From NCBI GenBank assembly GCA_964636555.1, contig CAZWRZ010000013.1, positions 116-64,115 on the forward strand: a DNA stretch of 64,000 bases. The letters run 5' to 3'. Source of the stretch: an uncultured Ruminiclostridium sp. GTDB taxonomy: Bacteria; Bacillota; Clostridia; Oscillospirales; Ruminococcaceae. Below are positions 6,719 through 47,170 of the stretch, piece by piece. How positions within the stretch are numbered: position 1 is the stretch's first letter; the number at the start of each line of letters is the position of its first letter. The notes below the pieces were generated by a model that saw only the letters and a list, made by a program, of their open reading frames with translations, was not told the DNA's origin and did no database searches. The translations under genes and the position numbers were made by a program.

Positions 6719-7122
6719 GGGGCTGTAAAAAGACAGCCCCCTTTATTTTATGCTCTTAAGAAACTTGTGCTGATTTATGGTTCTCTCAAAAAAGTTGTGT
6801 TGATTTGTGGTTCTCTCAGAAAAGTTGTGCTGATTTGTGGTTCTCTCAGGAAAGTTGTGCTGATTTGGGTTCTCTCAAGGCAGTTGGCGGTAATTTACTG
6901 ATTTAAAAAGAATTTCAAAACCGTAAACATTTTAAAATTACTTGAAAAACTGGGTAATTTTAAAATGTTTACTATCCGACCGAGTTTGGAGTTTTTGCTT
7001 GAAAAGCTGGGCAAAAACTCCAAACTCAGTCGATTTTTGAATTTCGTGCTATCAGAACAGTTGTGAGAGTGGAAACCCGCTTTTAGATATGTAGTACAGA
7101 TTTTACGGTTTTTTACAGCCCC
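6719..7122 (+). repeat. Modular intergenic element, family 1 copy A
   Basis: Four 30-bp units (6761-6880); core CTGAT...ATCAG 6898-7055 with perfect 18-bp (6923-6972) and 17-bp (6982-7027) hairpins, both with CTTGAAAARCTGGG loops; 13-bp inverted ends GGGGCTGTAAAAA/TTTTTACAGCCCC. Confidence 0.95.
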
Positions 7123-7289
7123 GCTTTTTGCCTGTTTATATTAAACGAATCACCGTCTGTATTTTCACAGCATAAATTCAATTTCCAATTCGCTTTCGTG
7201 TTCCCGATGCGTCCCAACCGAAAACTTTTGATTATTTGCAGATACTGATATTATATGTCTTTTTTCTCTGCTGCCTTACAAATAAGAAT

Positions 7290-7790
7290 TTATAAAACGC
7301 GTTGGGCTACAACTACGGTATAGTTATCGGTATCATAAGTAATCCCGGTTTCCGTAAAATTGTTTTTATGCCAAAAATGCTCCGATTGAGGATTTCCCTT
7401 TGCCCAGCCAAGCCGAACGCTTGAAAATCCGATATCGGTCAGATAGCAGCACAAATCATCAATAATACCGCTTCCGATTCCGGTGTTTTGGACCGACGCC
7501 GCTGTCATAAAGAATCCTATGAAAGCAGTTTTCTCATCAGGGTATGCCATAATAAGATCCATTACAGCAATCAGCTTGTCTCCTTTGTAGTACCCCACAT
7601 AATATTTATCTGACATTTCTTTGTTTGGAGGCAGAGCCTTCATATCATCAAGAATACTCTGCTCCGTCACAAATGGCGGACAGTATTGATAAAACAAGCC
7701 GTTTTTACTGCACAACAGGTATATATCTTTGACATCCGCTTTATCCATGCGGCGCACATCATAATCATCAGAAAAAAGGGATATATCCAT
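7290..7790 (-). CDS. GNAT family N-acetyltransferase
   Basis: FIGFFM...VQNTGIGS acetyl-CoA motif, VRLGWAKGNPQSEHFWHKNNF. Confidence 0.9.
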   Translation of the reverse strand: MDISLFSDDYDVRRMDKADVKDIYLLCSKNGLFYQYCPPFVTEQSILDDMKALPPNKEMSDKYYVGYYKGDKLIAVMDLIMAYPDEKTAFIGFFMTAASVQNTGIGSGIIDDLCCYLTDIGFSSVRLGWAKGNPQSEHFWHKNNFTETGITYDTDNYTVVVAQRVL

Positions 7791-7971
7791 TTATGTCACC
7801 TTCACAAATCCGATTTGCGGATTACTATACGGTCAATAAAATAATTCACGGCGCAAAGCAAGTTATATATTCATTCCATTCACTTGGGAACCCGAAGTCG
7901 GATTGGAACAAATCCAAAAGCCTCCAATAAATTCTCAAATCCGAATATATTGCATTTCCGACAATAGGGAA

Positions 7972-8883
7972 CTATTTTTCGGAATCGGTATCTATGGAAA
8001 CAATATACCGCGGTCTGCCTTTGATCTCCTCATATATTTTGCTCAGATAATATCCGATGACTCCAAGTGCAAGCATTATAAGTGAGCTTGAAAACAGCAG
8101 TACGGGGATTATGCCGTTTTGTGGTATTCCTTGACACAATCTTACTATCGAAATGATTCCCGTGACTATTGACGCAAACAGGAAAATAAAGCCGAAAACC
8201 GTCACAAGGTGTAAGGGCGCATTTGTAAAGCCGGTGAGGTTTGATATTGCGAATTTAAACAGCTTTTTGAAATTCCACTTGCTTGCTCCCGCATTTCTCG
8301 GAGCAACATTGAACTCTATCTTTGTTGTTTTAAAGCCTACCCATGAGGACAGAGCCCTGTAAAAGGTTATCCTTTCGGGCAGCTCGTTAAGCGCGTCTAT
8401 GACCTGTCTGTCCATAAGCTTATAGTCGCTGGCGCCGTTCATGTCGATGTTGGAGGAGCTTTTCATCATTCCGTAAAAGCTTTTTGCGAAAAATCCGTAA
8501 ATGGGGCTTTCCTTTCCTCTTGAAGCCTTCACTGCTTCAACCACCTGCCAGCCTTGCTTCCACAGATTGTGCATTTCAACCATAAGCTTGGGCGGGTGCT
8601 GCAGATCACAGTCTATAACAACGGCGCAGTCTCCCTTGCAGTGCTTCAAGCCTGCAAAGATCGCCCCTTCCTTGCCGAAATTGCGTGAAAACTTCAAGCC
8701 CCTTACCGATTTGTTCTTTTCTGCAAGACCTTCTATAAGCTCCCAAGTCCTGTCCCGTGAGCCGTCGTCCACGAAAAAAATTTCGCAGTCTATATTATTT
8801 TCTTCCATAATACCGCCTATCACATTGGCGGTATTTTCAATGTTTTCCTCCTCGTTGTAAGAAGGAATTATTATTGACATCAT
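7972..8883 (-). CDS. GT2 polyprenyl-phosphate glycosyltransferase (GtrB/YkcC-like)
   Basis: IIIPSYNEEENI, VDDGSRD, FSRNFGKE, DCDLQHPP, two C-terminal TM helices, RPRY tail. Confidence 0.92.
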   Translation of the reverse strand: MMSIIIPSYNEEENIENTANVIGGIMEENNIDCEIFFVDDGSRDRTWELIEGLAEKNKSVRGLKFSRNFGKEGAIFAGLKHCKGDCAVVIDCDLQHPPKLMVEMHNLWKQGWQVVEAVKASRGKESPIYGFFAKSFYGMMKSSSNIDMNGASDYKLMDRQVIDALNELPERITFYRALSSWVGFKTTKIEFNVAPRNAGASKWNFKKLFKFAISNLTGFTNAPLHLVTVFGFIFLFASIVTGIISIVRLCQGIPQNGIIPVLLFSSSLIMLALGVIGYYLSKIYEEIKGRPRYIVSIDTDSEK

Positions 8884-8919
8884 GGTTTTTTAAATCTCCT
8901 TTTTGAGAAAGCCGTCAGG

Positions 8920-10047
8920 TTACGGTTCCTTAAGCGGCTCAAGAGCCAATCCGCCGCTGACTGTGGTTACATACAGAATGTTTGACGGCTCCGAGGGCTT
9001 TTGCAGGTCAATACTTCCGAAAAACCGTTCTTCAAGTCCCATAAGTCCGCCGTCAAGCCAGCCGCTGACCGTTCTGAACTCCAGATCTACTCCCGAATTT
9101 TCGGGCATAAGCACTTTGATATTTCCCTCATTGCTTTCAAATCTACCCTCTGTTGCATATTCCTTATATGAGCAGAAGATCCCTCCGCTTATAGATGCGG
9201 CGTTTATTTCCCTGTCGGCGCTGTTTATATAAATATTTCCGCTTCTGGTTCGGAGCTTGGTGTAAAGGGAGGGAGTGCCTTCAAGGGTTATGGTGCCGCT
9301 TCCGCTGCTCAGATAAAATTCGCGGTAATCGCTTTCGGGCAGCCACACAGTCATCTTGTAGCCGAACTGATCCCGTGCGAACAGCGAAAGGGTGAAGGAG
9401 TCGTCCTGTGTTATTTTAAGGTAATCCTCGCTGCTTTCCTCCACGATAATGGGCATATCGTTGGCGTATTCCACCAGAATTTCTTCTCCCTCATAGCTTT
9501 TTATCTCAAAATCAAGCCCCGAGGTGCTGATGTACAAGTACTTTGCGGCAGGGAAGGAAAGACTCTCCTTTACCACCGTGCTTTGATAGTCCCTTGCAAT
9601 ATCCGTATAACGAAGCCAGATAAACGCCCCCAAGAAAATAAGGGTGAAAATAAGGCTGATGATCAGAAGCCTTGAAAAGCTGAAATTTGAATATATCCTC
9701 CGCCAGCGCTTGTCTCTCACAGCGGCAATGTATTTGTACAGAAGCCTGACAGAAAAGGGGGAAAATACGCAAAGGAAAAAACCGAGGAACACCCCCGCGC
9801 ACAGCATAAGGGCGCCCGCCGCAGTCAAAGTTACGGGAGAAAGATCCGAAACCACCTTCAAGACCTTTACCGCTCCTGTCATATCGATAATTCCAACGGG
9901 CAGACACAAAAGCCCCGCCGACAAAAGCACCAGAGCCGAGACCGCCAAGGCGAAATTTATGATAAAAAGCGTCAAAAAGCCTGCGGCAGCAGGGATCAGC
10001 AAAATCCTTGCAAGGCAAACTTTAAGGGATCTTTCCCCTTTGTCCAT
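8920..10047 (-). CDS. Membrane protein with a DUF4097-like beta-strand repeat domain
   Basis: Three N-terminal hydrophobic segments, then repeated T/S-SG-x-I beta motifs (SSGSGTI, TRSGNI, SISGGI, TVSGGL). Confidence 0.7.
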   Translation of the reverse strand: MDKGERSLKVCLARILLIPAAAGFLTLFIINFALAVSALVLLSAGLLCLPVGIIDMTGAVKVLKVVSDLSPVTLTAAGALMLCAGVFLGFFLCVFSPFSVRLLYKYIAAVRDKRWRRIYSNFSFSRLLIISLIFTLIFLGAFIWLRYTDIARDYQSTVVKESLSFPAAKYLYISTSGLDFEIKSYEGEEILVEYANDMPIIVEESSEDYLKITQDDSFTLSLFARDQFGYKMTVWLPESDYREFYLSSGSGTITLEGTPSLYTKLRTRSGNIYINSADREINAASISGGIFCSYKEYATEGRFESNEGNIKVLMPENSGVDLEFRTVSGWLDGGLMGLEERFFGSIDLQKPSEPSNILYVTTVSGGLALEPLKEP

Positions 10048-10233
10048 TTTATCTTCCTTATATTTTTGTGTTGTTAAAAGTTGTTTTTCTCAAATGAGCA
10101 TCTTATCTCATTATCTGTATTATTTTATCACAATAGAGTTATAGTGTCAAGGGCTTGTGTTTTGACCTTGCCCTTTTATTGCATATCTTCTATACCTTCA
10201 TTTATCTTTATCTTCGCATATATTTACATATCG

Positions 10234-10557
10234 TCATAAATCCCGCTGTTTTCTCTCCCTTGCCGAAATGCTTACAAGGGTATAAACCATTTGCTGTTGA
10301 TCCTCCGACAGAGTACGCAGCTTTGTGATAAGTGAAAGCTCCTTTGCCGAAAGCTCAAAGCCGTTGCCGCCAAGCAAAAGATCTATGGAAACGCTAAGAG
10401 CCGAGGCTATTCTCCTGATCAGCTCAAAATCGGGCTGACGCTTGTCTTTTATATATCCGTTAAGGGTGGTGGGAGCAATGTTTAAGGTCTTGGCAAATTC
10501 CTTCTGCGTTAAGCTCCGTTCTTCCAGCAGCTCGGATAATCTTTCGCCGAAAGTCAT
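10234..10557 (-). CDS. XRE-family HTH transcriptional regulator
   Basis: MTFGERLSELLEERSLTQKEFAKTLNIAPTTLNGYIKDKRQPD; GGAGG SD before ATG 10557. Confidence 0.92.
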   Translation of the reverse strand: MTFGERLSELLEERSLTQKEFAKTLNIAPTTLNGYIKDKRQPDFELIRRIASALSVSIDLLLGGNGFELSAKELSLITKLRTLSEDQQQMVYTLVSISARERKQRDL

Positions 10558-11267: not shown

Positions 11268-11282
11268 ATCGGGAGGAAAGCT

Positions 11283-12071: not shown

Positions 12072-12072
12072 T

Positions 12073-13149: not shown

Positions 13150-13188
13150 TTTTGAAAATCCTCAAAAAGGTTTTATAAAGCAAAAAAC

Positions 13189-13230: not shown

Positions 13231-13255
13231 TTATGTACTTCATTCAAAAATTGTT

Positions 13256-15554: not shown

Positions 15555-16550
15555 TCAAGACCCCGCCCTGCTTTTATCCTCCGACAAAATATCCAGCCAA
15601 TCCTCGGGAAATCCCAGCATAGACAGCTCCACAACCTCCTTGTAATCAAAATAAAGCCTTCTGAACTGCCTTAAAAAGCCGTCGCGCCACTTAAAGGGCT
15701 GCCTGTAAAGCTCCTTCATAACGAGTATGTACTCAAAAACCGTACCCTCGCTTGAATGAAGATCTCCCATTTCCCAATCGTAAAGTCTGTGATAGTGGGC
15801 GCAGTGATTGCGGAAATCAGACATCTTATGCAGCTTCATTTCCAGATCGCCCGAAGAGGTGTTGTAGTGTTTTTTCGATATATCCATTTTGTCGCCGGGC
15901 TTCAGATCCGCATAGAACATATTCAAGCCGCCGAAGCTGAACAACTCCATTATTACCCACAGAGGGAACTGTCCAGCGTGCTTTCTCAGATAGTGCTGCA
16001 CCATTTCGCTGTCCTCGTTGCTTTCCACCAGCCTGCTTATGCGGGACAGGAAGGATTTGTGATTATGGACATGGCTGAAGGTTTCCGGGCTGAGATATCC
16101 CGTTGCACCGTACTTTATGGCATGATAGTTGGAGCAGTGGGCGCGGAAGGCAATCTCTATTTCCTCTAAGGTTCCCATTAAAAGAGAACGCAGTTTGCGG
16201 TCAAAGTCGTAAACAAGCAGAACCTCGTTGAATTTTGTGCCCTCTCTGTACTTGCCGTCCTTCTGCAAATACAGCGAAAAATAGTGAGCCAAGCGGAAGT
16301 AATTTATGTTGGTAAGGGTTTCAAGAGCAAACTCCTCGTCCTCAACGATACAGCCTCTTTCTTTCAGCTTTGCAAGCTGCTCCGCGACGGTGGCGGGGAG
16401 CTTTGCTCTCGGATCCTTTTTGGGATTTTTGTTTTTTGCGGTTATTTCCCTTTGCTCGTGATCCCTTGTATAGTCTTCTTCTCTGACTTGTTTCTGCCGA
16501 GGCTGATTTTTGGGATTGCCTGTTGGTCGGTTGTTGTAGCCCTTGCTCAT
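15555..16550 (-). CDS. Abi-family (Abi_2/AbiD/AbiF-like) HEPN protein
   Basis: EQLAKLKERG...INYFRL...VYDFDRKLR...LEEIEIAFR, PLWVIMELFSFG, intact HEPN RNHCAH. Confidence 0.88.
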   Translation of the reverse strand: MSKGYNNRPTGNPKNQPRQKQVREEDYTRDHEQREITAKNKNPKKDPRAKLPATVAEQLAKLKERGCIVEDEEFALETLTNINYFRLAHYFSLYLQKDGKYREGTKFNEVLLVYDFDRKLRSLLMGTLEEIEIAFRAHCSNYHAIKYGATGYLSPETFSHVHNHKSFLSRISRLVESNEDSEMVQHYLRKHAGQFPLWVIMELFSFGGLNMFYADLKPGDKMDISKKHYNTSSGDLEMKLHKMSDFRNHCAHYHRLYDWEMGDLHSSEGTVFEYILVMKELYRQPFKWRDGFLRQFRRLYFDYKEVVELSMLGFPEDWLDILSEDKSRAGS

Positions 16551-16574: not shown

Positions 16575-16895
16575 GTTTTAGGAAAGTTGTGCTGATTTGG
16601 GTTCTCTCAAGAAAGTTGTGTTGATTTATGCCCGCTCTTCGGGAAGTTGGCGGTGATTTACTGATTTAAAAGAATTTCAAAATTCTTAAAATAAAGACTC
16701 CATGCCGCAAGCGGCATTCTGCTTTATTTTAAGAACCGGTCAGAATTTTCGTTGAAAATTCTGACGCTTTTTGAAATTCGTGCTATCAAGAAAGTTGCGG
16801 GAGTGGTGATCCGCTCTTCGGAATTTTGTGCTGATTTTTACTGCTCTTTTAGGGAAGTTGTGTGAATAGATGCCCGCTTTTAGCAGATGTTGCAC
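16575..16895 (+). repeat. Modular intergenic element, family 1 copy B
   Basis: Same outer frame (16661-16789) with different inner hairpins (TTCTTAAAATAAAG stem with nested ATGCCGCAAGCGGCAT; GTCAGAATTTTC-GTT-GAAAATTCTGAC); about 30-bp units on both sides. Confidence 0.92.
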
Positions 16896-17570
16896 TTATT
16901 TAATATTTTCCGCCGTATTTGGTCTTTTAACGTCTACCACAAAGCTCGTATCCGACATTAGCTTCAGCAGATCATCCGTGCCGTGTTCTATCTTGTACTC
17001 CATTTCCTCGCGGTAAATAGGAATAAGCTGATAAAAGTTGACGGGGTCGCCGCCCGGAAGAGTGCAGGTGTTGCTTTCGCCGACCATGGGATCAATAAGC
17101 AGTGCGCCGCAAAATTCGGTGTTATCTGCATAAGCGCCCTGATTATCCACCGAATGTCCCCAGCCTAACCATGTGTCGCAGGCAATAGGCAGCCTTGCGG
17201 TGCTTTTCAGAAGCCGAATGGGCCAATACCACTTTTCGTCCTTTTCGGGTATTACCCAATCGGTCGGAAGAGTGATGAGCAGCTCCGCTCTTTCCAGCTT
17301 ATACTCCGCCAATTCGGGAGGAACATTCATTTTATGCGCCCCCATTCCCATAGTGACCAAGGTGTAGTAATTCCTGTCCCCAGCAGGGGGAATAAACAAT
17401 ATATCAACATGAATATCGGGCGACACTATTTCGTGAAATACGTTGTTGAATTCGCCGAAGCTTTGGCTGACAAAGCTGTCAACAGTCTCCATTTCCTCTT
17501 GGCTGTACATTTCGGGAGCCATGCCGTCGGAATGCTCATTGCTTTTCTTTTTTCCGCCAAACAGTTTCAT
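16896..17570 (-). CDS. Suppressor-of-fused (SUFU) domain protein
   Basis: HEIVSPDIHVDI, YTLVTMGMGAHKMNVP, RAELLITLP, WLGWGH, FYQLIPIYREE. Confidence 0.88.
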   Translation of the reverse strand: MKLFGGKKKSNEHSDGMAPEMYSQEEMETVDSFVSQSFGEFNNVFHEIVSPDIHVDILFIPPAGDRNYYTLVTMGMGAHKMNVPPELAEYKLERAELLITLPTDWVIPEKDEKWYWPIRLLKSTARLPIACDTWLGWGHSVDNQGAYADNTEFCGALLIDPMVGESNTCTLPGGDPVNFYQLIPIYREEMEYKIEHGTDDLLKLMSDTSFVVDVKRPNTAENIK

Positions 17571-17574
17571 AGTT

Positions 17575-18237
17575 TTAAAATACGCTCCTTCTTTCGGGAT
17601 TGACACAGTAAACCAGATCCAGATTTTTTCTCAGCCCTTTAAAAAGCTGTTCTCCGCCGTGTTCTTTTCTGTACCTGATCTCCTCTCTGAACAGCGGGAT
17701 AAATTGGAAAAACTTCACGCTGCTGCCGTCCGAAAGCTTGCACAGACTGCTGTCCTCGGAAATGTCCACCTCGGGTTCAACAAGCAGCGCACCCATAAAT
17801 TTATTGAGCGGGTCGTAATACTTGGGCATCTCAATAACCGGAAATTCGCCGAAGCAGCAGTCCTTTTCCGCTGCCAGCTTTGCCGCATCTCTCAGCAAAT
17901 GCAGCGGCCAATATATCTCCTCGGTTTTTTCGTCCAAGGGCCAGTTCTTGTCAAGGGTGAGAATTAACTCAATTCTGTCGTGAAAATCCGCTTTAGCGTT
18001 CAAAGGTACGCTTGCAGGGGGATTTATCTTATGTGCGCCCAAGCCCGTTGTTACCAACGTGTAAAATGGCTTGGCGAAATTCGGCGGAATTATGGCGATA
18101 TCGGGATGAACGCCGGAGGAGGAGTAGTCACGGTAAAATGACTTTGTTTTTCCGTAGTGCTTTTTGATATACTTTTTCAATATATCGCTGTCCTTGTTGG
18201 AATAAAGCTCCTGTATGCCGGTTTCTTCTGTGCTCAT
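17575..18237 (-). CDS. Second, divergent SUFU-domain protein
   Basis: VHPDIAIIPP, YTLVTTGLGAHKINPP, RIELILTL, YWPLHLL, FFQFIPLFREE. Confidence 0.82.
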   Translation of the reverse strand: MSTEETGIQELYSNKDSDILKKYIKKHYGKTKSFYRDYSSSGVHPDIAIIPPNFAKPFYTLVTTGLGAHKINPPASVPLNAKADFHDRIELILTLDKNWPLDEKTEEIYWPLHLLRDAAKLAAEKDCCFGEFPVIEMPKYYDPLNKFMGALLVEPEVDISEDSSLCKLSDGSSVKFFQFIPLFREEIRYRKEHGGEQLFKGLRKNLDLVYCVNPERRSVF

Positions 18238-22680: not shown

Positions 22681-22710
22681 GAGGGCTGTAAAAAATGCAG
22701 CCCTTTTTAA
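22681..22710. terminator. Bidirectional terminator hairpin
   Basis: AGGGCTGTAAAAAATGCAGCCCTTTTT between convergent genes. Confidence 0.75.
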
Positions 22711-23081
22711 TTCACTCCAAACACTCCCCCAACCGCTCCAACTATCCAGCACACCAAGGCTTTCCCGATAAATCCGCCAAAAGAGACGTCCCCAAAGGCA
22801 ACGCCAAGCACAAGACTTATCAGCAGCAGCCCGCTGCCACAAAGCAAGCCCTGTTTTATTCCCTCGCGTTTTTTCTGCTTACCCAAAGCAAACCCGCCCG
22901 CAAAGCAGCCAAAGGACAGTGCCAGCAAGCCTAAAAAGTAACTCCATTCCACAGGAAACTGCATTATCCACATAATAAGCGAAAGGAACAAAAGCACAGC
23001 AAGGCACACCGCTCCCCCTACGGCAAGCGACAGCAAAAAGGGCAGAAACAGGTGCCTTTTCAGCGATTTAAATTTTTTCAT
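22707..23081 (-). CDS. TIGR04086-like small membrane protein
   Basis: Four TM helices, GGFALGK...KREGIKQGLLCG, GAVGGVFGVN end. Confidence 0.8.
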   Translation of the reverse strand: MKKFKSLKRHLFLPFLLSLAVGGAVCLAVLLFLSLIMWIMQFPVEWSYFLGLLALSFGCFAGGFALGKQKKREGIKQGLLCGSGLLLISLVLGVAFGDVSFGGFIGKALVCWIVGAVGGVFGVN

Positions 23082-23169: not shown

Positions 23170-23533
23170 CTTATTTTATGCTCCCAAGAAACTTGTGCTG
23201 ATTTATAGTTCTCTCAGGAAAGCTGGCGGTAATTTGCTGATTTAAACAGAATTTCAAAACCGACAAGATTTAAAAGATTTCCGGTACTAATCCCTTTTAA
23301 AACTGTGGGATTAGTACGAAAAGCTGGGAAATTTTTAAATCTTGTCTATCTAACTGAGTTCGAATTTTTTGCTTGAAAAATTGGGCAAAAATCCGAACTC
23401 AGTTGATTTTTGAAATTCGTGCTGTCAGGGCAGTTGTGCTGATCGGCATCCGCTTTTAGAAGGCTTGTGCCGATTTTTTACCGTTCTGTTAAGAAACTTG
23501 ATATAAAATAGGGGCTGTCTTTTTTACAGCCCC
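23170..23533 (+). repeat. Modular intergenic element, family 1 copy C
   Basis: Core 23237-23428; hairpin 1 has an extra GTACTAATCCC/GGGATTAGTAC hairpin inserted in its loop; GGGGCTGT palindrome at the right end. Confidence 0.93.
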
Positions 23534-23547
23534 TTTTATATTACACT

Positions 23548-24984
23548 TTACTTCTCCCCCAAATACTCCGCCAGCATTAAATCCACTATACGTCCGTAGC
23601 TCTTAGTGCCGTCCGTCTGATTGTTTGCTTTTAGGTAAGTATCATTCACCACAGAAGAAACCTTATAGGTCACCTTCTTCTGATAAGGCGACCAATATTC
23701 GTTCCTGTAAGCATATTCGTTAAGAATTACCGAGGACAGCTTTCCGCATACCTCATAGTATTCCTCGCTTGAAACCGCTCCGTGCAGTGCGTTAAGCGCG
23801 TAGGTCAATGCGCCTAAATATCCGCTGTATCTGAAATAAGTGCTTTCGCTTTCACGGCACGCCATAAATGCGATAAAGTTTGCCTCATCTTCACGGATAA
23901 AGCCGCTTAAATGGCTCAGCTCGTGGCAAGCGGTAAAGCCTTGCGAGGATACGGGCATTGCCTGGTTGAAGTTTGCCTCTACCGTAACGGGGAAGTATAT
24001 CCCCGCTAAGTTGAAGCTTGACATAAGATCGGAGCAAAGCACTCCCTTTGGCTGGGGGTAGTAGGTTTTAAGCACCTCGTACTTTTCGCCCAAGCTTTCC
24101 ATTGCCTTCACTGCATATTTGTTGAAGTCCCAAGGCTTAACGGGTCTGCCTTCGCCGTCAAGATCCACCCTTTCGGCGATCTCATTGGCTTGGTCTATCA
24201 GATAAAGGGTAAGCTCCTTAAGTTCATCGGCGGTATATTCCCTTAAAGTAAGTCCGCTGTACTGCGAAAAGGGTGTGCGGTTATAGCCCACAAGACAGTT
24301 GAAGGTAACCGTGAGAAACAGCGCCGCCGCAATAACCTCCGCCCAAGAAAATCCGTTAAGGAACGCCTTTATTCGCCGCCCCTTGTGCTTTACCGTATGT
24401 CTGACAAGGAAAACCAGTCCCGTCAACGCTCCCGCAATTACAAGCACCACAAGGATTTCAGCGCAGGAAAAGGGAAATACTCCCCAAATACGTGAGCCTA
24501 TCCCCGAAAAAACAGGGTAAACGTTAAAGCAGAACCAATCCGCAAAATCCCGGCTTGCCCTGCTGATAAACAGCACCAATAGCGCAGCTGCCAAAACGGC
24601 TCCCGCAATGATATGACGGGAAAGGTTCAGCTTAACGGGCTTTTTTTCCTCCGCCTTAATAATATCGGGAGCAATAAACTCGCCCTCTGCCGTTTCCTGC
24701 GGGTTTTCATAGGCGGGTATTATGTCGGCGGCATTTATGTTGTTTTCGGTATTTTCCGCAGCTCCCTCGAGGGGATTTATTAGGTCGGAATGGCTGTTTT
24801 CCTTGTGTTTTTCTTCAACCGGAATTGCGGTAAGAGCAATATTGCCGTCCGCGACTTTTTCTTCAACCAATTTTATGTTTGCGGCACTGTTTTCCTCATT
24901 GCTTACAGGGACGTTTCCCGAAAGCTTTTCCGTTCCTGCCTTAGCGTCGGCAGCTTTTCTGCTGTTTTTACTTTTTCCCGACAT
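23548..24984 (-). CDS. DUF3810-family membrane protein (zincin-like HExxH) with an acidic N-terminal extension
   Basis: GIYFPVTVEANFN, FTACHELSHLSGFIREDEANFIAF, SYGRIVDLML. Confidence 0.88.
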   Translation of the reverse strand: MSGKSKNSRKAADAKAGTEKLSGNVPVSNEENSAANIKLVEEKVADGNIALTAIPVEEKHKENSHSDLINPLEGAAENTENNINAADIIPAYENPQETAEGEFIAPDIIKAEEKKPVKLNLSRHIIAGAVLAAALLVLFISRASRDFADWFCFNVYPVFSGIGSRIWGVFPFSCAEILVVLVIAGALTGLVFLVRHTVKHKGRRIKAFLNGFSWAEVIAAALFLTVTFNCLVGYNRTPFSQYSGLTLREYTADELKELTLYLIDQANEIAERVDLDGEGRPVKPWDFNKYAVKAMESLGEKYEVLKTYYPQPKGVLCSDLMSSFNLAGIYFPVTVEANFNQAMPVSSQGFTACHELSHLSGFIREDEANFIAFMACRESESTYFRYSGYLGALTYALNALHGAVSSEEYYEVCGKLSSVILNEYAYRNEYWSPYQKKVTYKVSSVVNDTYLKANNQTDGTKSYGRIVDLMLAEYLGEK

Positions 24985-28214: not shown

Positions 28215-28243
28215 TTGACTTATAGATAAAAATAAAGTACAAT
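28215..28243 (+). promoter_or_regulatory. Probable sigma-A promoter for rpe
   Basis: TTGACT-17-TACAAT. Confidence 0.6.
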
Positions 28244-28290
28244 ATAAAAAGGAATGTAATACTAATTCTCAATAAAAATAAGACAAATCC

Positions 28291-28386
28291 GGCGGGCAGG
28301 GCGTTTCTGATCAAGGAAGTCCCGACGCAGGAATATGCGGATATTTCAAGTCGGGCTGACGCAGAGCAGGGACGCCCCGGTCGCCC
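28291..28386. repeat. Short palindromic element related to family 2
   Basis: GGGCGTTTCTG/CAGGGACGCCC arms; GCAGGAATA-N6-TATTTCAAG is the reverse complement of the family 2 core motif. Confidence 0.6.
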
Positions 28387-28426
28387 AATTTGGCTGATTT
28401 TTATTGAAATTTAGTATAAATAAAGA

Positions 28427-28661
28427 CTTCACTCTCTAAAAGCGGGCTCCTAATCGCACAACCGTCTTGATAGCACGAATTTCAAAAATTGTTCGAGGTT
28501 AGAGTTTTTGCCCGGCTTTTCAAGCAAAAGCTCTAACCTCGGACGGATAGTAAACTTATTTTTTATAATTTCCCATCTTTTCGTACTAATCCCACAGTTT
28601 AAAAGAAATTAGTACAGGGAATCTATAAAAATAAGTTTACGGTTTTGAAATTCTTTTCAAT
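28427..28661 (-). repeat. Modular intergenic element, family 1 copy D (truncated at the rpe RBS)
   Basis: TGATAGCACGAATTTCAAAAA...TTTTGAAATTCTTTT with copy-C-type nested hairpin; abuts AAGGAG at 28662. Confidence 0.9.
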
Positions 28662-28676
28662 AAGGAGTTGATAAGC

Positions 28677-34355: not shown

Positions 34356-34398
34356 AAAACCATTGCTGCTTGCAGCGGTAAACCGATAAAAATAAAAA

Positions 34399-34780
34399 GG
34401 GGCTGTAAAAATCAGCCTCTAATTTTTTTACAAGATTTTAAAAGAAATGTAAAAATCAACACAACGCCCCATAAAAGCGGTGAAAAATTATCACTTGTTT
34501 CCTTAAAGGCGGGTTACCATTCTCACAACTTTTCTGATAGCACGAATTTCAAAAATCGACTGAGTTTGGAGTTTTTGCCCAGCTTTTCAAGCAAAAAATC
34601 CAAACTCGGTCGGATAGTAAAGATTTTAAAATTTCCCAGTTTTTAAAGAAATTTTAAAATGTTTACGGTTTTGAAATTATTTTTAAATCAGCAAATTACC
34701 GCTAACTTCTCTGAGAGAACCATAAAATCAGCACAAGTTTTTTAGAACATAAATAAAGGGACTGCCTTTTTGACAGTCCC
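34399..34780 (-). repeat. Modular intergenic element, family 1 copy E
   Basis: Near reverse-complement copy of the A core (34534-34691); GGGGCTGT-type palindromes at both ends. Confidence 0.93.
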
Positions 34781-34803
34781 TTTGTATTTATATGAGATTA
34801 TAT

Positions 34804-36301: not shown

Positions 36302-37669
36302 TTATTCACAGCCCAAGGCAATTCCGCATTCAATTCTCTTTTGCTGTAATTTGCAGGCAAGAGAATTGGGTATCTGCACATCTCCCTCATATTGGAAGGA
36401 ATTGGCGTTGCAGCCGCCCGAGCAGTAGAACCTTGCCCAGCAGTCAGAACAGCCCTTTTTGCTGTAAATGTGGGTTTTGGCAAAATAATCCTTCATGCCC
36501 TTGTCAACGGTACCTTCAAATATATTGCCCATTTTCCACCGGTCCATTCCTACAAATTGGTGACAGGGGAAAATTTCTCCGTCGGGAGTAACGGCAACAT
36601 ATTCGTTTCCGCAGCCGCAGCCTCTCAATCTTTTGATTGCGCAAGGACCTTGGTTCAGATCTATCTTGAAGTGGAAAAAGTTGAATCTGCCCGGATCTTT
36701 TTCCATTATCTCATAAAGTCTTTCATACTCTTTGTAGATAACAGGCAGATCTTCTTCCGTCAGAGCGTAGGGAAATTTTGAATCGGTGACTACGGGCTCT
36801 ACCGACAGCTGCTTAAAGCCCAGATCTGCAAAATGGAGAATATCGTTGGCAAAATCCAGATTGTATTTGGTAAATGTACCTCTTATATAGTAGTCGGTGC
36901 GTCCTTCTTTGGTTCTGCCCTCAACAAGCTTTTTGAATTTGGGGACGATTATGTCATAGCTGCCCTTGTGATTGGGGGTGAAGCGTATCCTGTCGTTTAC
37001 TTCCTTTCTGCCGTCAAGGGAAAGGACACAGTTGGACATTTCGCGGTTGATGTACTCTATCTTTTCATCATCAAGCAGCATTCCGTTGGTGGTAATGGTA
37101 AAGCGGAAGTTTTTTCCGTGCTGCTTTTCGATACTTCTTGCATAGTCTACTGTAGAAGTTACGGTGTCCCACGCCATAAGGGGCTCTCCGCCGAAAAAGT
37201 CTACCTCTAAATTTTCTCTGCCAAAGGATTTTTCTATAAGGAAATCAATAGCTTTTTTGCCCACCTCAACGGGCATCAGCTTTCGTCCCGTTCCGAAATC
37301 TCCCGTTTCGGCAAAGCAGTATTCGCACCGCAGATTGCAGTCGTGGGAAACGTGCAGGCACATTGCCTTAATGGGAGAGTTAAGGGTCTTGTCGGCAAAT
37401 TGGCGGTATTCGTCCTCCGAGAACAGGCACTTGTCCTTGTACAGCTGTTCCAGCTCTTCAAGACATTCGGCAATATCGGTTTTATTGTATTGGGGAAGCT
37501 TTTCCGCCAGCTCCTCGGCGGTTACACCCAAATTATCGGCGTTGGGTTCCGGGCAGATATGATCCAGCATCTGAAAGATCATCTCGTCTACAAGATGAAC
37601 TCCGCCGCTGTTGACGTCGAGAACGATGTATTTTTCGCCTTGCTTGTATTTATGTATTCTTGTTTCCAA
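36302..37669 (-). CDS. scfB: SCIFF/ranthipeptide radical SAM maturase
   Basis: CNLRCEYC, VDFFGGEPL, SPASM cysteines, adjacent precursor gene. Confidence 0.95.
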   Translation of the reverse strand: METRIHKYKQGEKYIVLDVNSGGVHLVDEMIFQMLDHICPEPNADNLGVTAEELAEKLPQYNKTDIAECLEELEQLYKDKCLFSEDEYRQFADKTLNSPIKAMCLHVSHDCNLRCEYCFAETGDFGTGRKLMPVEVGKKAIDFLIEKSFGRENLEVDFFGGEPLMAWDTVTSTVDYARSIEKQHGKNFRFTITTNGMLLDDEKIEYINREMSNCVLSLDGRKEVNDRIRFTPNHKGSYDIIVPKFKKLVEGRTKEGRTDYYIRGTFTKYNLDFANDILHFADLGFKQLSVEPVVTDSKFPYALTEEDLPVIYKEYERLYEIMEKDPGRFNFFHFKIDLNQGPCAIKRLRGCGCGNEYVAVTPDGEIFPCHQFVGMDRWKMGNIFEGTVDKGMKDYFAKTHIYSKKGCSDCWARFYCSGGCNANSFQYEGDVQIPNSLACKLQQKRIECGIALGCE

Positions 37670-37699: not shown

Positions 37700-38120
37700 T
37701 TTTTTAATTCTCTCAAAAAACTTGTGCTGAATTGCAGTTCTCTTAGGGAAGTTGTGCCGGTTTTGGTTCTCTCAGAAAAGTTGTGCGAATGGAAGCCCGC
37801 TTTTTGGGAAACTTGTACGAATAGAGACCCGCTTTTAAGGAAAGTTGGCGGTAATTTACTGATTTAAAAAGAATTTCAAAATTCACCAAAAAGACAATCC
37901 GCTCCGCCTTGCTCCGCTCCTCGTCTTTTTGGGAACCGGACGAAATTGAAAATTCCAGACTTCCGTAGGAAGTCATAGCCTTCTTTGAAATTCGTGCTAT
38001 CAGGGCAGTTGTGCTGTTAGGAAACCGCTTTTAGGAAAGCTGTGCTGCCGGGAAACCCGCTCTTAGTGGTGTTGTGCTGATTTTCCAATAATAAAGGGGC
38101 TGATTATCACAGCCCCTTTA
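37700..38120 (+). repeat. Modular intergenic element, family 1 copy F
   Basis: Four upstream and three downstream about 30-bp units; core 37859-38003 with a (GCTCC)n loop; ends in the GGGGCTG...CAGCCCC hairpin. Confidence 0.92.
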
Positions 38121-38132: not shown

Positions 38133-38276
38133 TTACTTGTTAGCCTCGCAAGTCTGATTAGCAACGGTGCAAGAGGTCTTGCAAGCGGACTGGCAAGAGG
38201 TCTGGCACTTGCCGCAGCCGCCCTTTGCCGCTGTTTCCTTAAGGTTAGCCTTGTTTACTGTTTTAATATGCTTCAT
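38133..38276 (-). CDS. scfA: Six-cysteine SCIFF precursor peptide (47 aa)
   Basis: Hand translated: MKHIKTVNKANLKETAAKGGCGKCQTSCQSACKTSCTVANQTCEANK; AAGGAG SD. Confidence 0.96.
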   Translation of the reverse strand: MKHIKTVNKANLKETAAKGGCGKCQTSCQSACKTSCTVANQTCEANK

Positions 38277-38445
38277 AGTCAGTTCTCCTTTCATGAGTAT
38301 CGGGTATAGTGCTATTGCATTACATTATAGCATATAAAATGATAATTTGCAAGAGATTGACGAAAAAAACTGCCGTGAATAAGACTATTGAAAATCATCA
38401 AAACTTATGCTAAAATAAAACAAGTTTAAAAAGAGGTGTTAATAA

Positions 38446-39066: not shown

Positions 39067-39087
39067 AAGGTACAAGCGGAGGAAAAT

Positions 39088-39777
39088 ATGTCGGAATTTT
39101 CACCCATAGCATACTTACACAGCGACTTTCCCGAAAAATTCGGACTGCCAAGACAAAGCGGACTTGTAAATTCTCTTAAATCTTATATAGTATTTGAACC
39201 GCAATACCGTGTAAGGGAAGCGTTCAGAGGGTTGGAGGAATACTCACATATTTGGATTTTGTGGGAATTTTCGGAAAGTGAGAGGAAAGAGGGAAAGAGC
39301 TGGTCGCCCACCGTCCGCCCGCCCAAGCTGGGAGGGAACAAGCGCATGGGAGTTTTTGCCACACGTTCTCCTTTCAGACCAAACCCAATAGCAATGTCGG
39401 CGGTGAAGCTGGAGAAGATTGATTTTAACTGTCCAAACGCTCCCGTGCTTGTGGTAAGCGGGGCTGATATTATGGACAACACGCCGATTTTGGATATAAA
39501 GCCCTATCTTGCATACACAGATTCTTATCCCGATGCTCTTTCGGGGTTTGCACTTGCGGAGAGGGAAGGAGCATTAAGGGTAGAAGCGCCGGACGAGCTT
39601 CTGAAAAAGATTCCTGAGGAGAAAAGGGAAGGGCTAAGGGATATTTTGAAACAAGACCCAAGACCCGCCTATCAGGAGAATCCCGAACGAGTTTATGTAA
39701 TGGAGTTTGGGGAGTTTGAGGTATTTTTTAAGGTGGACGAAGAAGTGCTGACGGTGACAGAAATCAAGAAGATATAA
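39088..39777 (+). CDS. trmO: tRNA t6A37 N6-methyltransferase TrmO/TsaA
   Basis: KFGLPRQSG, PTVRPPKLGGNKRMGVFATRSPFRPNPI, DIKPY. Confidence 0.93.
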   Translation: MSEFSPIAYLHSDFPEKFGLPRQSGLVNSLKSYIVFEPQYRVREAFRGLEEYSHIWILWEFSESERKEGKSWSPTVRPPKLGGNKRMGVFATRSPFRPNPIAMSAVKLEKIDFNCPNAPVLVVSGADIMDNTPILDIKPYLAYTDSYPDALSGFALAEREGALRVEAPDELLKKIPEEKREGLRDILKQDPRPAYQENPERVYVMEFGEFEVFFKVDEEVLTVTEIKKI

Positions 39778-40200
39778 AAGCACAGCTTTTTCAAGGGTGT
39801 GCAAAAATAGCACAACACCTCTAAGAGCGGTGAAAAATTATCACCTGTTTCCCTAAAAGCGGGCTTCCACTTTCACAACTGCTCTGATAGCACGAATTTC
39901 AAAAATCCGCACTCAGTTAGATAGACAAGATTTAAAAATTTCCCAGTTTTTCAAGAAATTTTTAAATCTTGTCGGTTTTGAAATTCTTTTTTAAATCAGC
40001 CAATTACCGCCAATTTTACTTAAAAGCGGGCTTCCGCTCGCACAACTTCCCTGAGAGCCCCAAAAATTAGCGCAGCATTCCTAAAAGCGAGTTTCCGACA
40101 ACACGACTTCCCTAAGAGAGCCAAATCAGCAAACTTTCATAAAAGAGCCGTAACATTAGGCGCAACATTTTTAAGAGCAATAAAACTCGCACTGTCAAAA
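39778..40200 (-). repeat. Modular intergenic element, family 1 copy G (second hairpin deleted)
   Basis: Core 39884-39999 keeps only hairpin 1; long run of about 30-bp units follows. Confidence 0.92.
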
Positions 40201-41904: not shown

Positions 41905-41920
41905 GGGAGGAGGATTTATT

Positions 41921-42843: not shown

Positions 42844-42860
42844 GTAAGGAGTTGAGTTAA

Positions 42861-43694
42861 ATGGCTATAAAAGCTTATAAGCCCACGACCCCCGGTCGCA
42901 GAGGCATGACGGTAATTGATTACAGCGGTTTATCCAAGGTTGCTCCCGAAAAGAGTCTGCTTGATACCGTCAAGAACAAATCAGGCCGCAACAGCTACGG
43001 CAGAATCACCGTAAGACATAAGGGCGGCGCTAACAGAAGAAAGTACAGAATCATTGATTTCAAGAGAAACAAGACAGGCGTTGACGCTGAGGTTATGACT
43101 CTTGAATATGATCCTAACAGAACCGCATTTATCGCACTTGTTAAGTATGAGGACGGCGAGAAGAGATACATTCTTGCTCCCGAAGGACTTAAGGTTGGCG
43201 ATAAGGTAAGAGCGGGAGCTGACGCTGATATCAAGCCCGGCAACGCTCTCCCTATGGCAAATATCCCCGTAGGTACCGTTATCCACAATGTTGAGCTTCA
43301 CCCCGGCAAGGGCGCACAGCTTGTACGCTCCGCAGGAAATATGGCTCAGCTTATGGCTAAGGAAAACGGATATGCTTTGGTAAGACTTCCCAGCGGCGAG
43401 CTTCGCAACGTTCCCGAAAACTGCTTCGCCACTATCGGTGTTGTTTCCAACGCAGACCACGCTAACGTAAACATCGGTAAAGCCGGACGTACACGTCACA
43501 TGGGTATCAGACCTACCGTAAGAGGTTCCGTAATGAACCCTAACGACCACCCTCACGGCGGTGGTGAAGGTAAGTCTCCTGTCGGCAGACCCGGACCTGT
43601 TACCCCTTGGGGCAAGCCCGCTATGGGACATAAGACCCGCAAGAACAAGAACAGCTCCGATAAGTTCATCGTTAGAAGAAGAAACGGAAAGTAA
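42861..43694 (+). CDS. rplB: 50S ribosomal protein L2
   Basis: [26 protein letters not shown]. Confidence 0.98.
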
Positions 43695-43832
43695 TTTATT
43701 AAAAACACTTAAAAATTCATTCCGATTGTTAATAAGCGTTGCGGCGGCTGCCTGAAATTACCCTTAAGCATTTAAGGAAAAGGCGGAGAGTAAGACCGCA
43801 GTGCGTTAACTTGCAGTTGAAAGGATAATAAT

Positions 43833-44108
43833 ATGAGCAGAAGTATCAAGAAGGGACCTTATGTGCAGGAAGCTCTCTACAAGAGAGTTCTGGCCATGAA
43901 TGAGGCAGGCGAGAAGAAGGTTCTCAAAACATGGAGCCGTTCAAGCACAATTTTCCCTGATTTCGTTGGACACACTTTCGCAGTTCATGACGGAAGAAAG
44001 CATATTCCCGTATACGTTACCGAGGATATGGTAGGCCATAAATTAGGCGAGTTTGCTCCCACAAGAACCTTTAAGGGTCACGTAGGAAGCAAGACAACTA
44101 AGAAGTAA
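43833..44108 (+). CDS. rpsS: 30S ribosomal protein S19
   Basis: [28 protein letters not shown]. Confidence 0.98.
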
Positions 44109-44122
44109 GGAGGAGTAGCATA

Positions 44123-44458
44123 ATGGAGGCAAGAGCAGAACTCAAGCATGTTCGTATTTCGCCCCGCAAGGTGAAGATCGTGCTTGATCTTATCAGAAAC
44201 AAGCCCTGCGATGTAGCTATGGCTACCTTAAAGCTGACACCCAAGGCTGCCAGCGAGCCGCTTATGAAGCTTCTCAAGTCTGCAATGGCTAATGCGGAAA
44301 ACAATCATAATATGGACGTAGGAAGCTGCTATGTTTCAGAGTGCTGGTGCGGCGAGGGTGTTACCCTTAAGAGAATCAGACCTGTATCAAAGGGAAGAGC
44401 GCACCGCATATTAAAGAGAACATCCAACATCGTTTTGGTTGTCAAGGAAGCAGAGTAA
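44123..44458 (+). CDS. rplV: 50S ribosomal protein L22
   Basis: RISPRKV, SAMANAENN, RAHRILKRTS. Confidence 0.98.
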   Translation: MEARAELKHVRISPRKVKIVLDLIRNKPCDVAMATLKLTPKAASEPLMKLLKSAMANAENNHNMDVGSCYVSECWCGEGVTLKRIRPVSKGRAHRILKRTSNIVLVVKEAE

Positions 44459-44470
44459 GGGAGGATAACA

Positions 44471-45232
44471 ATGGGACAAAAGGTTAATCCACACGGTATA
44501 AGAGTGGGTATTATCAAAGATTGGGATTCTCGCTGGTTTGCGGGCAAGGCAACCTTTGGCGACACTCTGGTGGAAGATGTAAAAATTCGTGAGTTTTTGA
44601 AGAAAAAGCTCTATAAGGCGGGCATTCCCGATATCGAGATCGAGCGTGACGCCGCTAAGGTAAAGGTTCACATTCACTGCGCAAAGCCCGGTATGGTTAT
44701 CGGACAGAAGGGCGCAGAGATCGAAAAGCTCAGAGCAGAGCTTGAAAAGATGACTAAGGGCAAGCCCGTAAACATCAATATCATCGAGGTAAAGAACCCC
44801 GATATGAACGCACAGCTTATCGCAGAGAACATCGCTTCTCAGCTTGAAGGCCGTGTAAGCTTCAGAAGAGCTATGAAGTCCTGCATCGGACGCACAATGA
44901 AGTGCGGCGCTAAGGGAATCAAGACTCAGGTAAGCGGAAGACTTGGCGGTGCCGAAATCGCACGTACCGAGAGCTACCATGAGGGAACAATTCCTCTGCA
45001 GACACTCCGTGCAGATATTGATTACGGCGTAGCAAGAGCAAGCACCACTTACGGTATAATCGGCGTTAAGGTTTGGCTGTACAAGGGCGAAGTTCTTAAG
45101 GGCGAGATCGGCAAGGAAAGAAACACCGAAAAGCCCGCAAGAAAACCCCGTGAGAGAGGCGACCGTGAAAACAGGGGCGAGAGAAGAAATTACAGACCCC
45201 GTGCAGAGAAAAAAGAGGGGGGTAATGTATAA
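44471..45232 (+). CDS. rpsC: 30S ribosomal protein S3
   Basis: [30 protein letters not shown]. Confidence 0.98.
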
Positions 45233-45654
45233 TGCTGCTTCCAAAGAGAGTTAAGCACCGCAGAGTGCAGAGAGGTCGTATGACCGGTAAGGCAACACGA
45301 GGCAACGTAGTATGCTACGGTGATTTCGGTTTGCAGGCTCAGGAGCCCGCTTGGATCACCAGCAACCAGATAGAAGCTGCCCGTATCGCAATGACCCGTT
45401 ATATCAAGCGTGGTGGTCAGGTTTGGATCAAGATTTTCCCCGATATGCCCGTTACCAAGAAGCCTATGGGAACACGTATGGGTTCCGGTAAAGGTGCACC
45501 CGAATATTGGGTAGCGGTTGTAAAGCCCGGCAGAGTAATGTTTGAAATTGCAGGGGTAAGCGAAGAGGTTGCAAGAGAGGCTATGCGTCTCGCTATGCAC
45601 AAGCTTCCCATTAAGTGCAAGTTCGTAAAGAAGGAAGAAGGAGGCGAGCAGTAA
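45232..45654 (+). CDS. rplP: 50S ribosomal protein L16
   Basis: [22 protein letters not shown]. Confidence 0.98.
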
Positions 45655-45857
45655 TGAAGGTTACAAAGGAAATCAGAGAGTTAAGCGTAGAAGAGCTTGA
45701 CAAAAGAGAAGCTGAGCTTAAAGAAGAGCTGTTCAACCTTCGCTTTCAGCTTGCCGTTAACCGTCTTGAAAATCCTATGAGGATCAAGGCTGTTAAGAAG
45801 GAAATCGCAGTAGTAAAAACGATCCGCCGTCAGCGCGAGATCAAAGCAAATAATTGA
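45654..45857 (+). CDS. rpmC: 50S ribosomal protein L29
   Basis: [16 protein letters not shown]; ATG overlaps the rplP stop. Confidence 0.97.
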
Positions 45858-45874
45858 GAGGGGAGGAACGAACC

Positions 45875-46138
45875 TTGGAAAACACCGAAAGAAATTTAAG
45901 AAAAACAAGAGTTGGCGTTGTAGTAAGCAACAAAATGGACAAGACCATCGTGGTTGCTCTGAAGGATAACGTTCGCCACCCCTTGTACAAGAAGATCATC
46001 AAGCGCACAATCAAGCTTAAAGCACACGACGAAAAGAACGAGTGCGGCGTAGGCGACAAGGTAAAGATCATGGAAACAAGACCTCTGTCCAAGGACAAGA
46101 GATGGAGACTTGTAGAAGTGCTTGAAAAGAGCAAGTAA
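45875..46138 (+). CDS. rpsQ: 30S ribosomal protein S17
   Basis: [22 protein letters not shown]; TTG start. Confidence 0.97.
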
Positions 46139-46162
46139 TAACGGAAGGAGATTGTATAAACT

Positions 46163-46531
46163 ATGATACAAATGCAGACACGCCTTAAAGTAGCTGATAA
46201 CACCGGCGCAAAAGAGCTTATGTGTATCAGAGTGCTGGGCGGAACACGCAGAAAGTACGCCAATATCGGAGACGTAGTTGTAGCTTCCGTTAAGAAGGCT
46301 GCTCCCGGCGGCACTGTTAAGAAGGGCGACGTTGTTAAGTGCGTTATCGTCCGCAGTGCAACAGGCGTAAGAAGAGACGACGGCACATACATTCGTTTTG
46401 ACGAAAATGCCGCAGTTCTCATCAAGGAAGATAAAAACCCCAGAGGAACCCGTATTTTCGGACCTGTGGCAAGAGAGCTCCGTGATAAGGAATATATGAA
46501 GATCCTTTCCCTTGCTCCCGAAGTACTTTAA
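46163..46531 (+). CDS. rplN: 50S ribosomal protein L14
   Basis: [21 protein letters not shown]. Confidence 0.98.
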
Positions 46532-46549
46532 GTTGAAGGAGGAGCAGGA

Positions 46550-46864
46550 ATGAATACTTTACATGTTAAAAAAGGCGACGAAGTAATGATAATTTCCGGC
46601 AAGGACAAGGGCAAAAAAGGCAAAGTGCTTGAAGTGTCCCCCTCCGAAGGCAAGGTTATCGTAGAAGGCAGAAACATGGTAACCAAGCATGTCAAGGCTA
46701 CCAAGCCCGGTCAGGCTTCCGGTATAGTTAAGGCAGAAGGTCCTCTTTACGCCTGCAAGGTAATGCCCGTTTGCCCCAAGTGCAACAAGGCTACCAGAGT
46801 AGGTCACAAAGTAGAGGGCAACAAGAAGGTAAGAGTTTGCAAGCATTGCGGTGCAGCTTTATAA
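46550..46864 (+). CDS. rplX: 50S ribosomal protein L24
   Basis: HVKKGDEVMIISGKDKGKKG (KOW). Confidence 0.98.
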   Translation: MNTLHVKKGDEVMIISGKDKGKKGKVLEVSPSEGKVIVEGRNMVTKHVKATKPGQASGIVKAEGPLYACKVMPVCPKCNKATRVGHKVEGNKKVRVCKHCGAAL

Positions 46865-46879
46865 TTGAGAGACAATTAT

Positions 46880-47170
46880 TTTAAGCATACAAATTCAAGC
46901 AAACTTTACTGACAGCACGAATTTCAAAAAGGACGAAATTTTCAATTTCGTCCGGTTCCAGAAAATAAAGAGGAATGGAGCGGAATGAAATGAAGCGGAA
47001 TGGATCTTTATTTTTGGAATTTTGAAATTCTTTTCAAATCAGTAAATTACCACCAACATTTTTGAGAAAACCCCAAAATGAGAAAACATTTTTGGGAGAA
47101 CCAAAAATGAGCCAACATTTTTGAGAGAACCCAAAATCGAAAAAACTTTTCTGGGAGACCTCAAAACCTA
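46880..47170 (-). repeat. Modular intergenic element, family 1 copy H (inside the spc operon)
   Basis: Core 46909-47042 of B/F type with a GGA-rich loop, then four AACATTTTTGAGAGAACC-type units. Confidence 0.9.

Follow-up and report, generated by a model that had tools for sequence, protein, structure and literature searches.

Elements derived from IS200/IS605 and the REP/REPIN-RAYT repeats follow the replication fork, on the lagging-strand template, or form inverted doublets. The MIRU repeats are reportedly oriented with transcription. MIRU consists of tandem short units found in operon spacers, beside start codons, and a minimal impact on downstream genes has been proposed for it (PMC12548453). 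BOX of Streptococcus pneumoniae, which has the arrangement boxA-boxB(n)-boxC and about 100 or more copies per genome, is transcribed along with operons, extending them on the 5' or 3' side, according to the passages of PMC3049150 that treat it; the same passages describe pneumococcal repeats as over-represented between convergent genes and report orientation-dependent effects of ERIC on messenger RNA (mRNA). The bcr1-bcr3 repeats of the Bacillus cereus group resemble MITEs (miniature inverted-repeat transposable elements), often lie in untranslated regions or operon spacers, and have about half of their copies in mRNAs (PMC3446304). Here we describe a repeat element present in eight copies in a 64,000-nucleotide stretch of DNA, hereafter the window, from an uncultured Ruminiclostridium sp. 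(contig CAZWRZ010000013.1, positions 116 to 64,115). The element is a mobile, modular, non-autonomous repeat of a gut Oscillospiraceae clade; between genes that run in the same direction its copies are oriented with those genes by about nine to one, and this orientation is independent of the replichore.

Element copies and their orientation relative to genes

A search of the window with CTGATAGCACGAATTTCAAAAA (at most one mismatch) yielded eight matches against 0.01 expected, recovering every one of the copies, A to H, that had been located in a preliminary description of this DNA. In each copy TTTTGAAATTC is present 107-191 nucleotides (nt) downstream on the same strand. Flanking genes were assigned by Pfam searches of the flanking open reading frames (ORFs). 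The copies, whose cores fall into the classes I and II described below, are as follows, together with a promoter-like site near copy D:

6719..7092, minus strand: copy A (match at 7055), class I composite with core 6906-7055 and four to five ~30-nt units 3' of the core; between GNAT (7290-7790, minus) and YfhO (3530-6652, minus), co-oriented
16578..16870, minus strand: copy B (match at 16789), class II composite with core 16668-16789, the final unit reaching into an AGGAG ribosome-binding site; between SUFU-like (16896-17606, minus) and Abi_2 (15555-16550, minus), co-oriented
23171..23537, minus strand: copy C (match at 23428), class I composite, core 23245-23428, loop 2 of which holds a nested hairpin; between DUF3810 (23548-24984, minus) and DUF3792 (22707-23081, minus), co-oriented
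28215-28243, plus strand: promoter-like site TTGACT-17-TACAAT, upstream of copy D and rpe
28434..28668, plus strand: copy D (match at 28467), class I composite with a nested hairpin, without 3' units, core 28467-28657; between yajC (minus) and rpe (plus), divergent
34449..34743, plus strand: copy E (match at 34534), class I composite with core 34534-34683; between a hypothetical gene (plus) and HtrA (minus), convergent
37708..38084, minus strand: copy F (match at 38003), class II composite, core 37867-38003, bearing an additional 5' hairpin; between the SCIFF peptide gene (38133-38294, minus) and the radical-SAM-SPASM maturase (36302-37669, minus), co-oriented
39803..40200, plus strand: copy G (match at 39884), units flanking a short class I core (39884-39990) on either side; between trmO (39088-39777, plus) and the S10 leader and rpsJ (plus), co-oriented
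46880..47170, plus strand: copy H (match at 46909), class II composite with core 46909-47034 and units to ~47170; between rplX (46550-46864, plus) and rplE (47235-47774, plus), inside the ribosomal-protein operon, co-oriented

These assignments agree with the earlier placement of A, B, C and F amid minus-strand genes, of G and H amid plus-strand genes, and of E between convergent genes. Copies A, B, C, F, G and H are co-oriented with both neighbouring genes and all are sense (6/6; two-sided 1/32). The preliminary description had arrived at seven of seven (1/64) by adding copy D, on the ground that D lies downstream of an rpe promoter. All informative copies are indeed sense, and D is probably transcribed in the sense direction within the rpe 5' leader, since it lies downstream of the predicted TTGACT-17-TACAAT promoter and its 3' end is flush with the rpe ribosome-binding site (AAGGAG); however, D sits in a divergent context, where either orientation is sense to one gene, so that it is formally uninformative and six of six is the appropriate count. 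It had also been stated that B, G and H start close to the upstream stop codon, and their units do begin ~5-25 nt after it. In copy G the repeat coverage stops at 40057, and the degenerate units to ~40200 were judged by eye. Copy C is preceded by the terminator of its upstream gene at 23510-23534, and terminator-like hairpins at 34398-34420 and 34755-34783 bracket copy E. Between the predicted rpe promoter and copy D there is a GC-rich, structured segment of ~130 nt (28270-28400), a candidate leader or riboswitch-like element, for which Rfam returned no match at the gathering score.

For a wider sample, a contig scan with TGAYAGCACGAAWTTCAAA gave at least 78 loci, nearly all from one Oscillospiraceae metagenome-assembled genome (MAG; JAAVIE01), which is syntenic with the window at ~85% nucleotide identity, and a few from two other MAGs. 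The sample totals 535 kb, and the tallies that follow cover the window plus the matches listed. Genes in the MAG loci were called from ORFs and a codon score, with long ORFs as the training set. Five pattern matches in unrelated taxa (L005, L009, L028, L040 and L061) were dropped as chance matches without the structure of the element.

With duplicate loci removed, 114 copies were left in the window and the matches listed: 47 between co-oriented genes in sense, five between co-oriented genes in antisense, 15 in convergent and 12 in divergent contexts, and 35 at contig edges. The tally of orientation against gene direction that the preliminary description had called for, run on the window and the related MAGs, is thus far from 50:50 between co-oriented genes, at 47 sense to 5 antisense (p = 1.3e-9). 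Among the matches listed, the MAG loci without the window give 41:5 (p = 4e-8) and JAAVIE01 by itself 40:4. Both core classes show the bias (class I 15:1, class II 26:3), as does a near-identical and probably recent subfamily, IIa, with six co-oriented and no anti-oriented copies, and Pfam confirmed the flanks of all five antisense copies. Co-orientation of about 9:1 with genes is therefore confirmed, and is strengthened relative to the window alone. In the dnaA region of JAAVIE01 (L048, 2754-6353) three copies occur within 3.5 kb, one of them antisense, 23 nt past the dnaA stop codon.

Gene direction and replication direction

Since the majority of Firmicute genes run in the direction of replication, a bias set by replication direction could bring about a secondary correlation with genes. 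At first sight the window would fit such a reading, in that copies A-C (minus) lie to the left of ~28 kb and D, E, G and H (plus) to the right, mimicking a divergence point; moreover, co-orientation in 47/52 copies exceeds only mildly an assumed leading-strand gene fraction of 80% (p = 0.037). Pairs of neighbouring copies tell otherwise. Among the 34 pairs of copies less than 8 kb apart, 18 have the same and 16 the opposite orientation, whereas only ~18% opposite pairs would be expected even at 90% fidelity to the replichore (p = 1e-4). A replichore-bound element would almost never switch within 8 kb, so replication direction does not explain the bias. Further, where both flanking genes run counter to the remainder of their locus, it is these genes that the copy is aligned with (7/7 cases). 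Within the window the orientations run - - - + + - + +, three switches in 64 kb, and copy F and its two genes are jointly inverted with respect to E, G and H, inside a block bearing the ribosomal-protein operon. Neither a DnaA-box cluster nor a dnaA gene was found near the 28-kb divergence point of the window. Control by replication direction is therefore highly improbable and largely refuted, and the earlier proposal that orientation goes with genes and not with chromosome strand or replichore stands on the 47:5 tally, the neighbour pairs and the locally opposed genes alike.

Assignment of the replichore from GC skew at four-fold sites was attempted and proved unusable, being dominated by the codon bias of highly expressed genes; the GC skew of the whole window follows the gene strand. 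The sole DnaA-box cluster of the window consists of five TTTTCCACA DnaA-box-like sites in 420 nt (58634-59052), which lie in two ~66-nt repeats, each with the palindrome TTTTCCACAGG...CCCGTGGAAAA, in a 1.5-kb non-coding stretch past rplQ at a gene convergence point. As genes converge there, this region is unlikely to be oriC, and it may represent either a DnaA-box cluster or another repeat family.

Structure, mobility and placement of the element

The minimal unit of the element is ~120-150 nt long. All copies share a frame that begins with a head resembling the units, CACAACTnnnCTGATAGCAC, continues with the perfect 11-nt inverted repeat GAATTTCAAAA / TTTTGAAATTC and closes with a tail, TTTT(T)AAATCAG(T/C)AAATTACCGCC. 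All complete copies possess this inverted repeat and an outer CTGAT...ATCAG, the inverted repeat lying internal to the asymmetric head and tail; the element ends are given as CTGATAGCAC...GAATTTCAAAA. Enclosed by the inverted repeat are one to three Watson-Crick hairpins, the stems of which vary by compensatory change: double changes affect 21/41 pairs in class II and 17/51 in class I, and one-sided changes are almost nil. In the class I core GATAG links two long hairpins, the CCCAGYTTTTCAAG loops of which are conserved; in the class II core a 12-bp hairpin is followed by CGGTTC and then by a long hairpin whose tip is GC-rich. Extra hairpins may be nested in loops or added 5'. Directional units of ~30 nt (CACAACTTTYCTNAGAGAACCNNAAATCAG or an ACCGCCAAST variant) are stacked on either side of the core in zero to more than six copies, and in the window such units were found only beside cores. 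The asymmetric parts of the element are its head, tail, linkers, loops and units.

Loop 2 of class I cores can harbour another small hairpin, GTACTAATCCCACAGTTTTAAAAGGGATTAGTAC, as at 23296-23339 and 28561-28604 of the window; class II cores of the MAG (L071, L070) contain a nested insert of ~66 nt, CCTCAGGGACGAGGCATTGTCTGCCCAAAGCGTTGACAGGACGTCAACGCCCAAAGCAGACA; and the loop motif CCCAGCTTTTCAAG also occurs inverted in some copies. Hairpin modules thus insert into, or flip within, one another. Searches over the elements with Rfam gave only generic hairpin matches far below gathering scores, the element core was absent from the viral contigs searched, no prior description was found in a literature search, and the element contains no consistent -35/-10 pair on either strand.

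The evidence for mobility comes from sites that are filled in one genome and empty in another. In a ~94%-identical relative represented in mouse-gut assemblies, the rplX-rplE spacer lacks copy H and has 28 nt in place of 316 nt of the window's sequence. Conversely, the MAG carries copies in an rnfD-rnfE-like spacer, in a 21-nt pth-trmO spacer and in the SCIFF-pth promoter region, three sites at which the window is short and has no element, and it is without a full copy at site E. The three filled/empty comparisons (pth-trmO, SCIFF-pth and rplX-rplE) revealed no target-site duplication, and 8-20 nt of the empty site were replaced. The smallest insertion, at pth-trmO, is a bare frame without extra units.

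The element often occupies the very short gap that separates a stop codon from the ribosome-binding site of the next gene. In co-oriented contexts the composite starts at a median of 25 nt past the stop codon and ends at a median of ~45 nt before the start codon; less than 55 nt is left before the start codon in 23/42 co-oriented copies, and 14/42 have less than 30 nt before and less than 60 nt after them, too little to accommodate a terminator or a promoter. The tail or 3' core directly adjoins AAGGAG-N6-11-ATG at seven or more different genes. From this geometry, and from the location of H in rplX/rplE and of F in SCIFF/maturase, we infer that many copies are internal to operons and so transcribed in the sense direction as part of operon mRNA.

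Contigs of several gut metagenome and metatranscriptome assemblies terminate inside copy H (47007-47068; region 46855-47172), indicating that the repeat fragments assemblies of the clade. At many sites there is also a near-identical terminator-like stem (GGGGCTGT...ACAGCCCC or GGGACTGT...), often with a CATAAAATAA flank. These hairpins, at 6719-6740, 22681-22705, 23510-23534, 34398-34420, 34755-34783 and ~38090-38120 of the window and at 7134-7160 of L076, occur at either end of composites and in either direction, and may constitute a terminator module that recurs or is mobile. Inside a long minus-strand ORF (2-1972) at the window's left edge, three tandem copies (14-266) of a 121-nt stretch with 66-nt spacing look like a coding tandem repeat.

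Origin of the orientation bias

The hairpins themselves are alike on the two strands. The mean folding energy is -59.6 kcal/mol in sense and -59.7 kcal/mol in antisense, G-U pairs number 129 in sense and 178 in antisense, with no sense enrichment, and covariation is almost purely Watson-Crick. A sense-specific RNA structure, considered as a candidate cause, was ruled out by the equal folding energies and the G-U counts. Read in antisense, the first hairpin is directly followed by TTTTTGAAATTC, a signal that a simple scan does not detect in sense. A terminator pattern scan flagged the sites of A, B and H, on the antisense strand only, and by the same criteria terminator-like sites are present in 58/92 cores in antisense and 2/92 in sense. 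The sequence that is set before the ribosome-binding site also differs, being A/U- and C/A-rich in sense and G/U-rich with CUCUC tracts in antisense.

We infer, with a probability of roughly 55%, that the bias reflects selection on transcripts that continue into the downstream gene, which purges the copies that disturb that gene. The element would be inserted or lost in intergenic DNA and there be transcribed within operon mRNA, and the co-orientation of about 9:1 would arise after insertion: antisense copies that are read through into a downstream gene would lower its expression and be purged, and sense-oriented copies would be tolerated. The leading candidate cause is the hairpin followed by TTTTTGAAATTC that the antisense strand presents, and a second candidate is the composition of the sequence placed before the ribosome-binding site. 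We lean to selection on several grounds. Anti-oriented copies leave a longer residual spacer (59-616 nt versus a median of 99 nt, p = 0.013), and four of the five have functionally unrelated genes on their two sides (integrase/solute-binding protein, hydrogenase-MCP/prs, CAP/IS110 fragment and dnaA/GNAT). In convergent contexts, which have no downstream gene, orientation is random, with no preference for the nearer gene (7/15), and in divergent contexts the nearer start codon is the co-oriented one in 9/12. Convergent contexts are, in addition, enriched at element-bearing sites (14/73 versus 22/365). The preliminary description had suggested that insertion or selection acts through RNA or through single-stranded DNA exposed by transcription; the evidence leans to selection on read-through transcripts, but the notion that the hairpins are selected as sense RNA is unsupported, given the equal folding energies, the lack of sense G-U enrichment and the Watson-Crick covariation.

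Several observations weigh against this reading. The terminator asymmetry is thin, resting on T5 versus T4 and on stem quality, and a graded terminator score of the d'Aubenton-Carafa type is below zero in both orientations and only somewhat higher in antisense (59/84 cores, p = 0.003); because this score is weak, we regard the antisense strand as a candidate cause and do not claim it as a proven terminator. One anti-oriented copy, in L076 (plsC/dagK), fills a tight spacer, and as there are just five anti-oriented copies, contrasts that involve them have little power. The tally comes mostly from a related species and not from the genome of the window, and our own gene caller made about two errors in 75 window calls, as judged by Pfam. 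Pieces of the element are present in a metatranscriptome assembly, the contigs of which are without direction and possibly derive from other copies, and four raw RNA runs contained zero reads of the organism.

Two other explanations accept the link with genes and account for it differently. The sense strand could have a positive function at the RNA level, as a processing or stability module, an array of protein-binding units, an A/U-rich translation enhancer or a portable ribosome-binding-site context. It is consistent with this that the asymmetric parts (head, tail, the CGGTTC or GATAG linkers and the CCCAGYTTTTCAAG loops) are highly conserved, that many genes have their ribosome-binding site directly adjoining the 3' core, that copies lie within operons, and that element sequences appear in the metatranscriptome assembly. 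Nevertheless, orthologous sites do well without the element, hairpin content and unit number vary freely, the sense strand has no folding advantage, convergent contexts, which offer 3' positions only, are unbiased, and no Rfam family matched; we hence consider a sense-strand function unlikely. Alternatively, orientation might be set at insertion, through strand-specific mobilisation (HUH/Y1-type or RNA-templated) on the single-stranded non-template DNA of transcribed regions. The absence of target-site duplication, with few bases replaced, at the three filled/empty comparisons, the asymmetric ends with their subterminal hairpins, and the 6:0 ratio of the probably recent IIa subfamily would all suit such a mechanism. 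Against it, one copy is located upstream of the -35 box of the pth promoter, and so probably outside any transcript; convergent contexts are not biased toward the nearer gene; anti-oriented copies do exist, where separate transcription units have room; and known single-strand transposons follow the replication fork, which the element does not. Orientation fixed at insertion is on balance quite unlikely, and its fuller version, in which transcription fixes orientation by duplication-free mobilisation (through single-stranded DNA or an RNA template) on the exposed non-template strand, is more doubtful still; were it true, the element would be a bacterial non-autonomous repeat that reads gene direction and not fork direction. 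Selection on read-through transcripts is thus the account we favour.

The family occupies ~4% of the window, with a copy about every 8 kb, and numbers more than 100 copies in the related MAG. Essential operons harbour it, and metagenome assemblies break where its copies lie. Its recognition should aid the annotation of Oscillospiraceae, where it accounts for spacers that are long and seemingly "empty", for spurious small ORFs and for the ends of contigs, and the family may serve as a marker for strain typing. Its copies also amount to a natural experiment on the sequences tolerated between the cistrons of a Firmicute operon, and the fact that gene direction and replication direction can here be cleanly told apart is useful, though not unprecedented, for the biology of bacterial repeats.

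Comparison with known repeats

As set against the passages on BOX in PMC3049150, the element is similarly composite, modular and non-coding, with variable tandem subunits, extensive hairpins and an excess in convergent contexts; its modularity is BOX-like in that zero to more than six units adjoin a conserved frame and hairpin modules are swapped or nested. Here, unlike in BOX, the ~30-nt units flank a palindromic core on both sides, and the host is an uncultured Oscillospiraceae clade. There is no evident sequence relationship to BOX, though the two sequences were not directly compared, and the passages of PMC3049150 on orientation describe no sense bias of ~90% between co-oriented genes.

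Like MIRU, the element lies in operon spacers, with H and F being intra-operonic, and is oriented with transcription (47:5), but MIRU carries a small ORF coupled to the flanking genes and is without a palindromic core. No reading frame of the element is open through a composite, and stretches that end near the downstream start span 0-32 codons; no stop codon lies near that start in 16/42 copies. Lacking a coupled small ORF, the element is not MIRU-like in mechanism.

Hairpin-forming repeats that are co-transcribed with genes are also represented by ERIC/IRU of Enterobacteria and Correia of Neisseria, and the element is like them in this respect. Those, however, are single-module inverted repeats without unit arrays, Correia duplicates its target, and no strong genome-wide sense bias is reported for either. 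The bcr1-bcr3 repeats are unrelated in sequence, and their architecture is simple where that of the element is composite. With IS200/IS605-derived palindrome-associated elements and REP/REPIN-RAYT the element shares a hairpin-based build, asymmetric ends and the absence of target duplication, the last of which means that it is not a classical MITE; because it does not track the replichore (18 same, 16 opposite), it is unlike IS200/IS605-type elements. Although it belongs to none of these families, the element resembles the known composite co-transcribed repeats, BOX, MIRU, bcr1-3 and ERIC.

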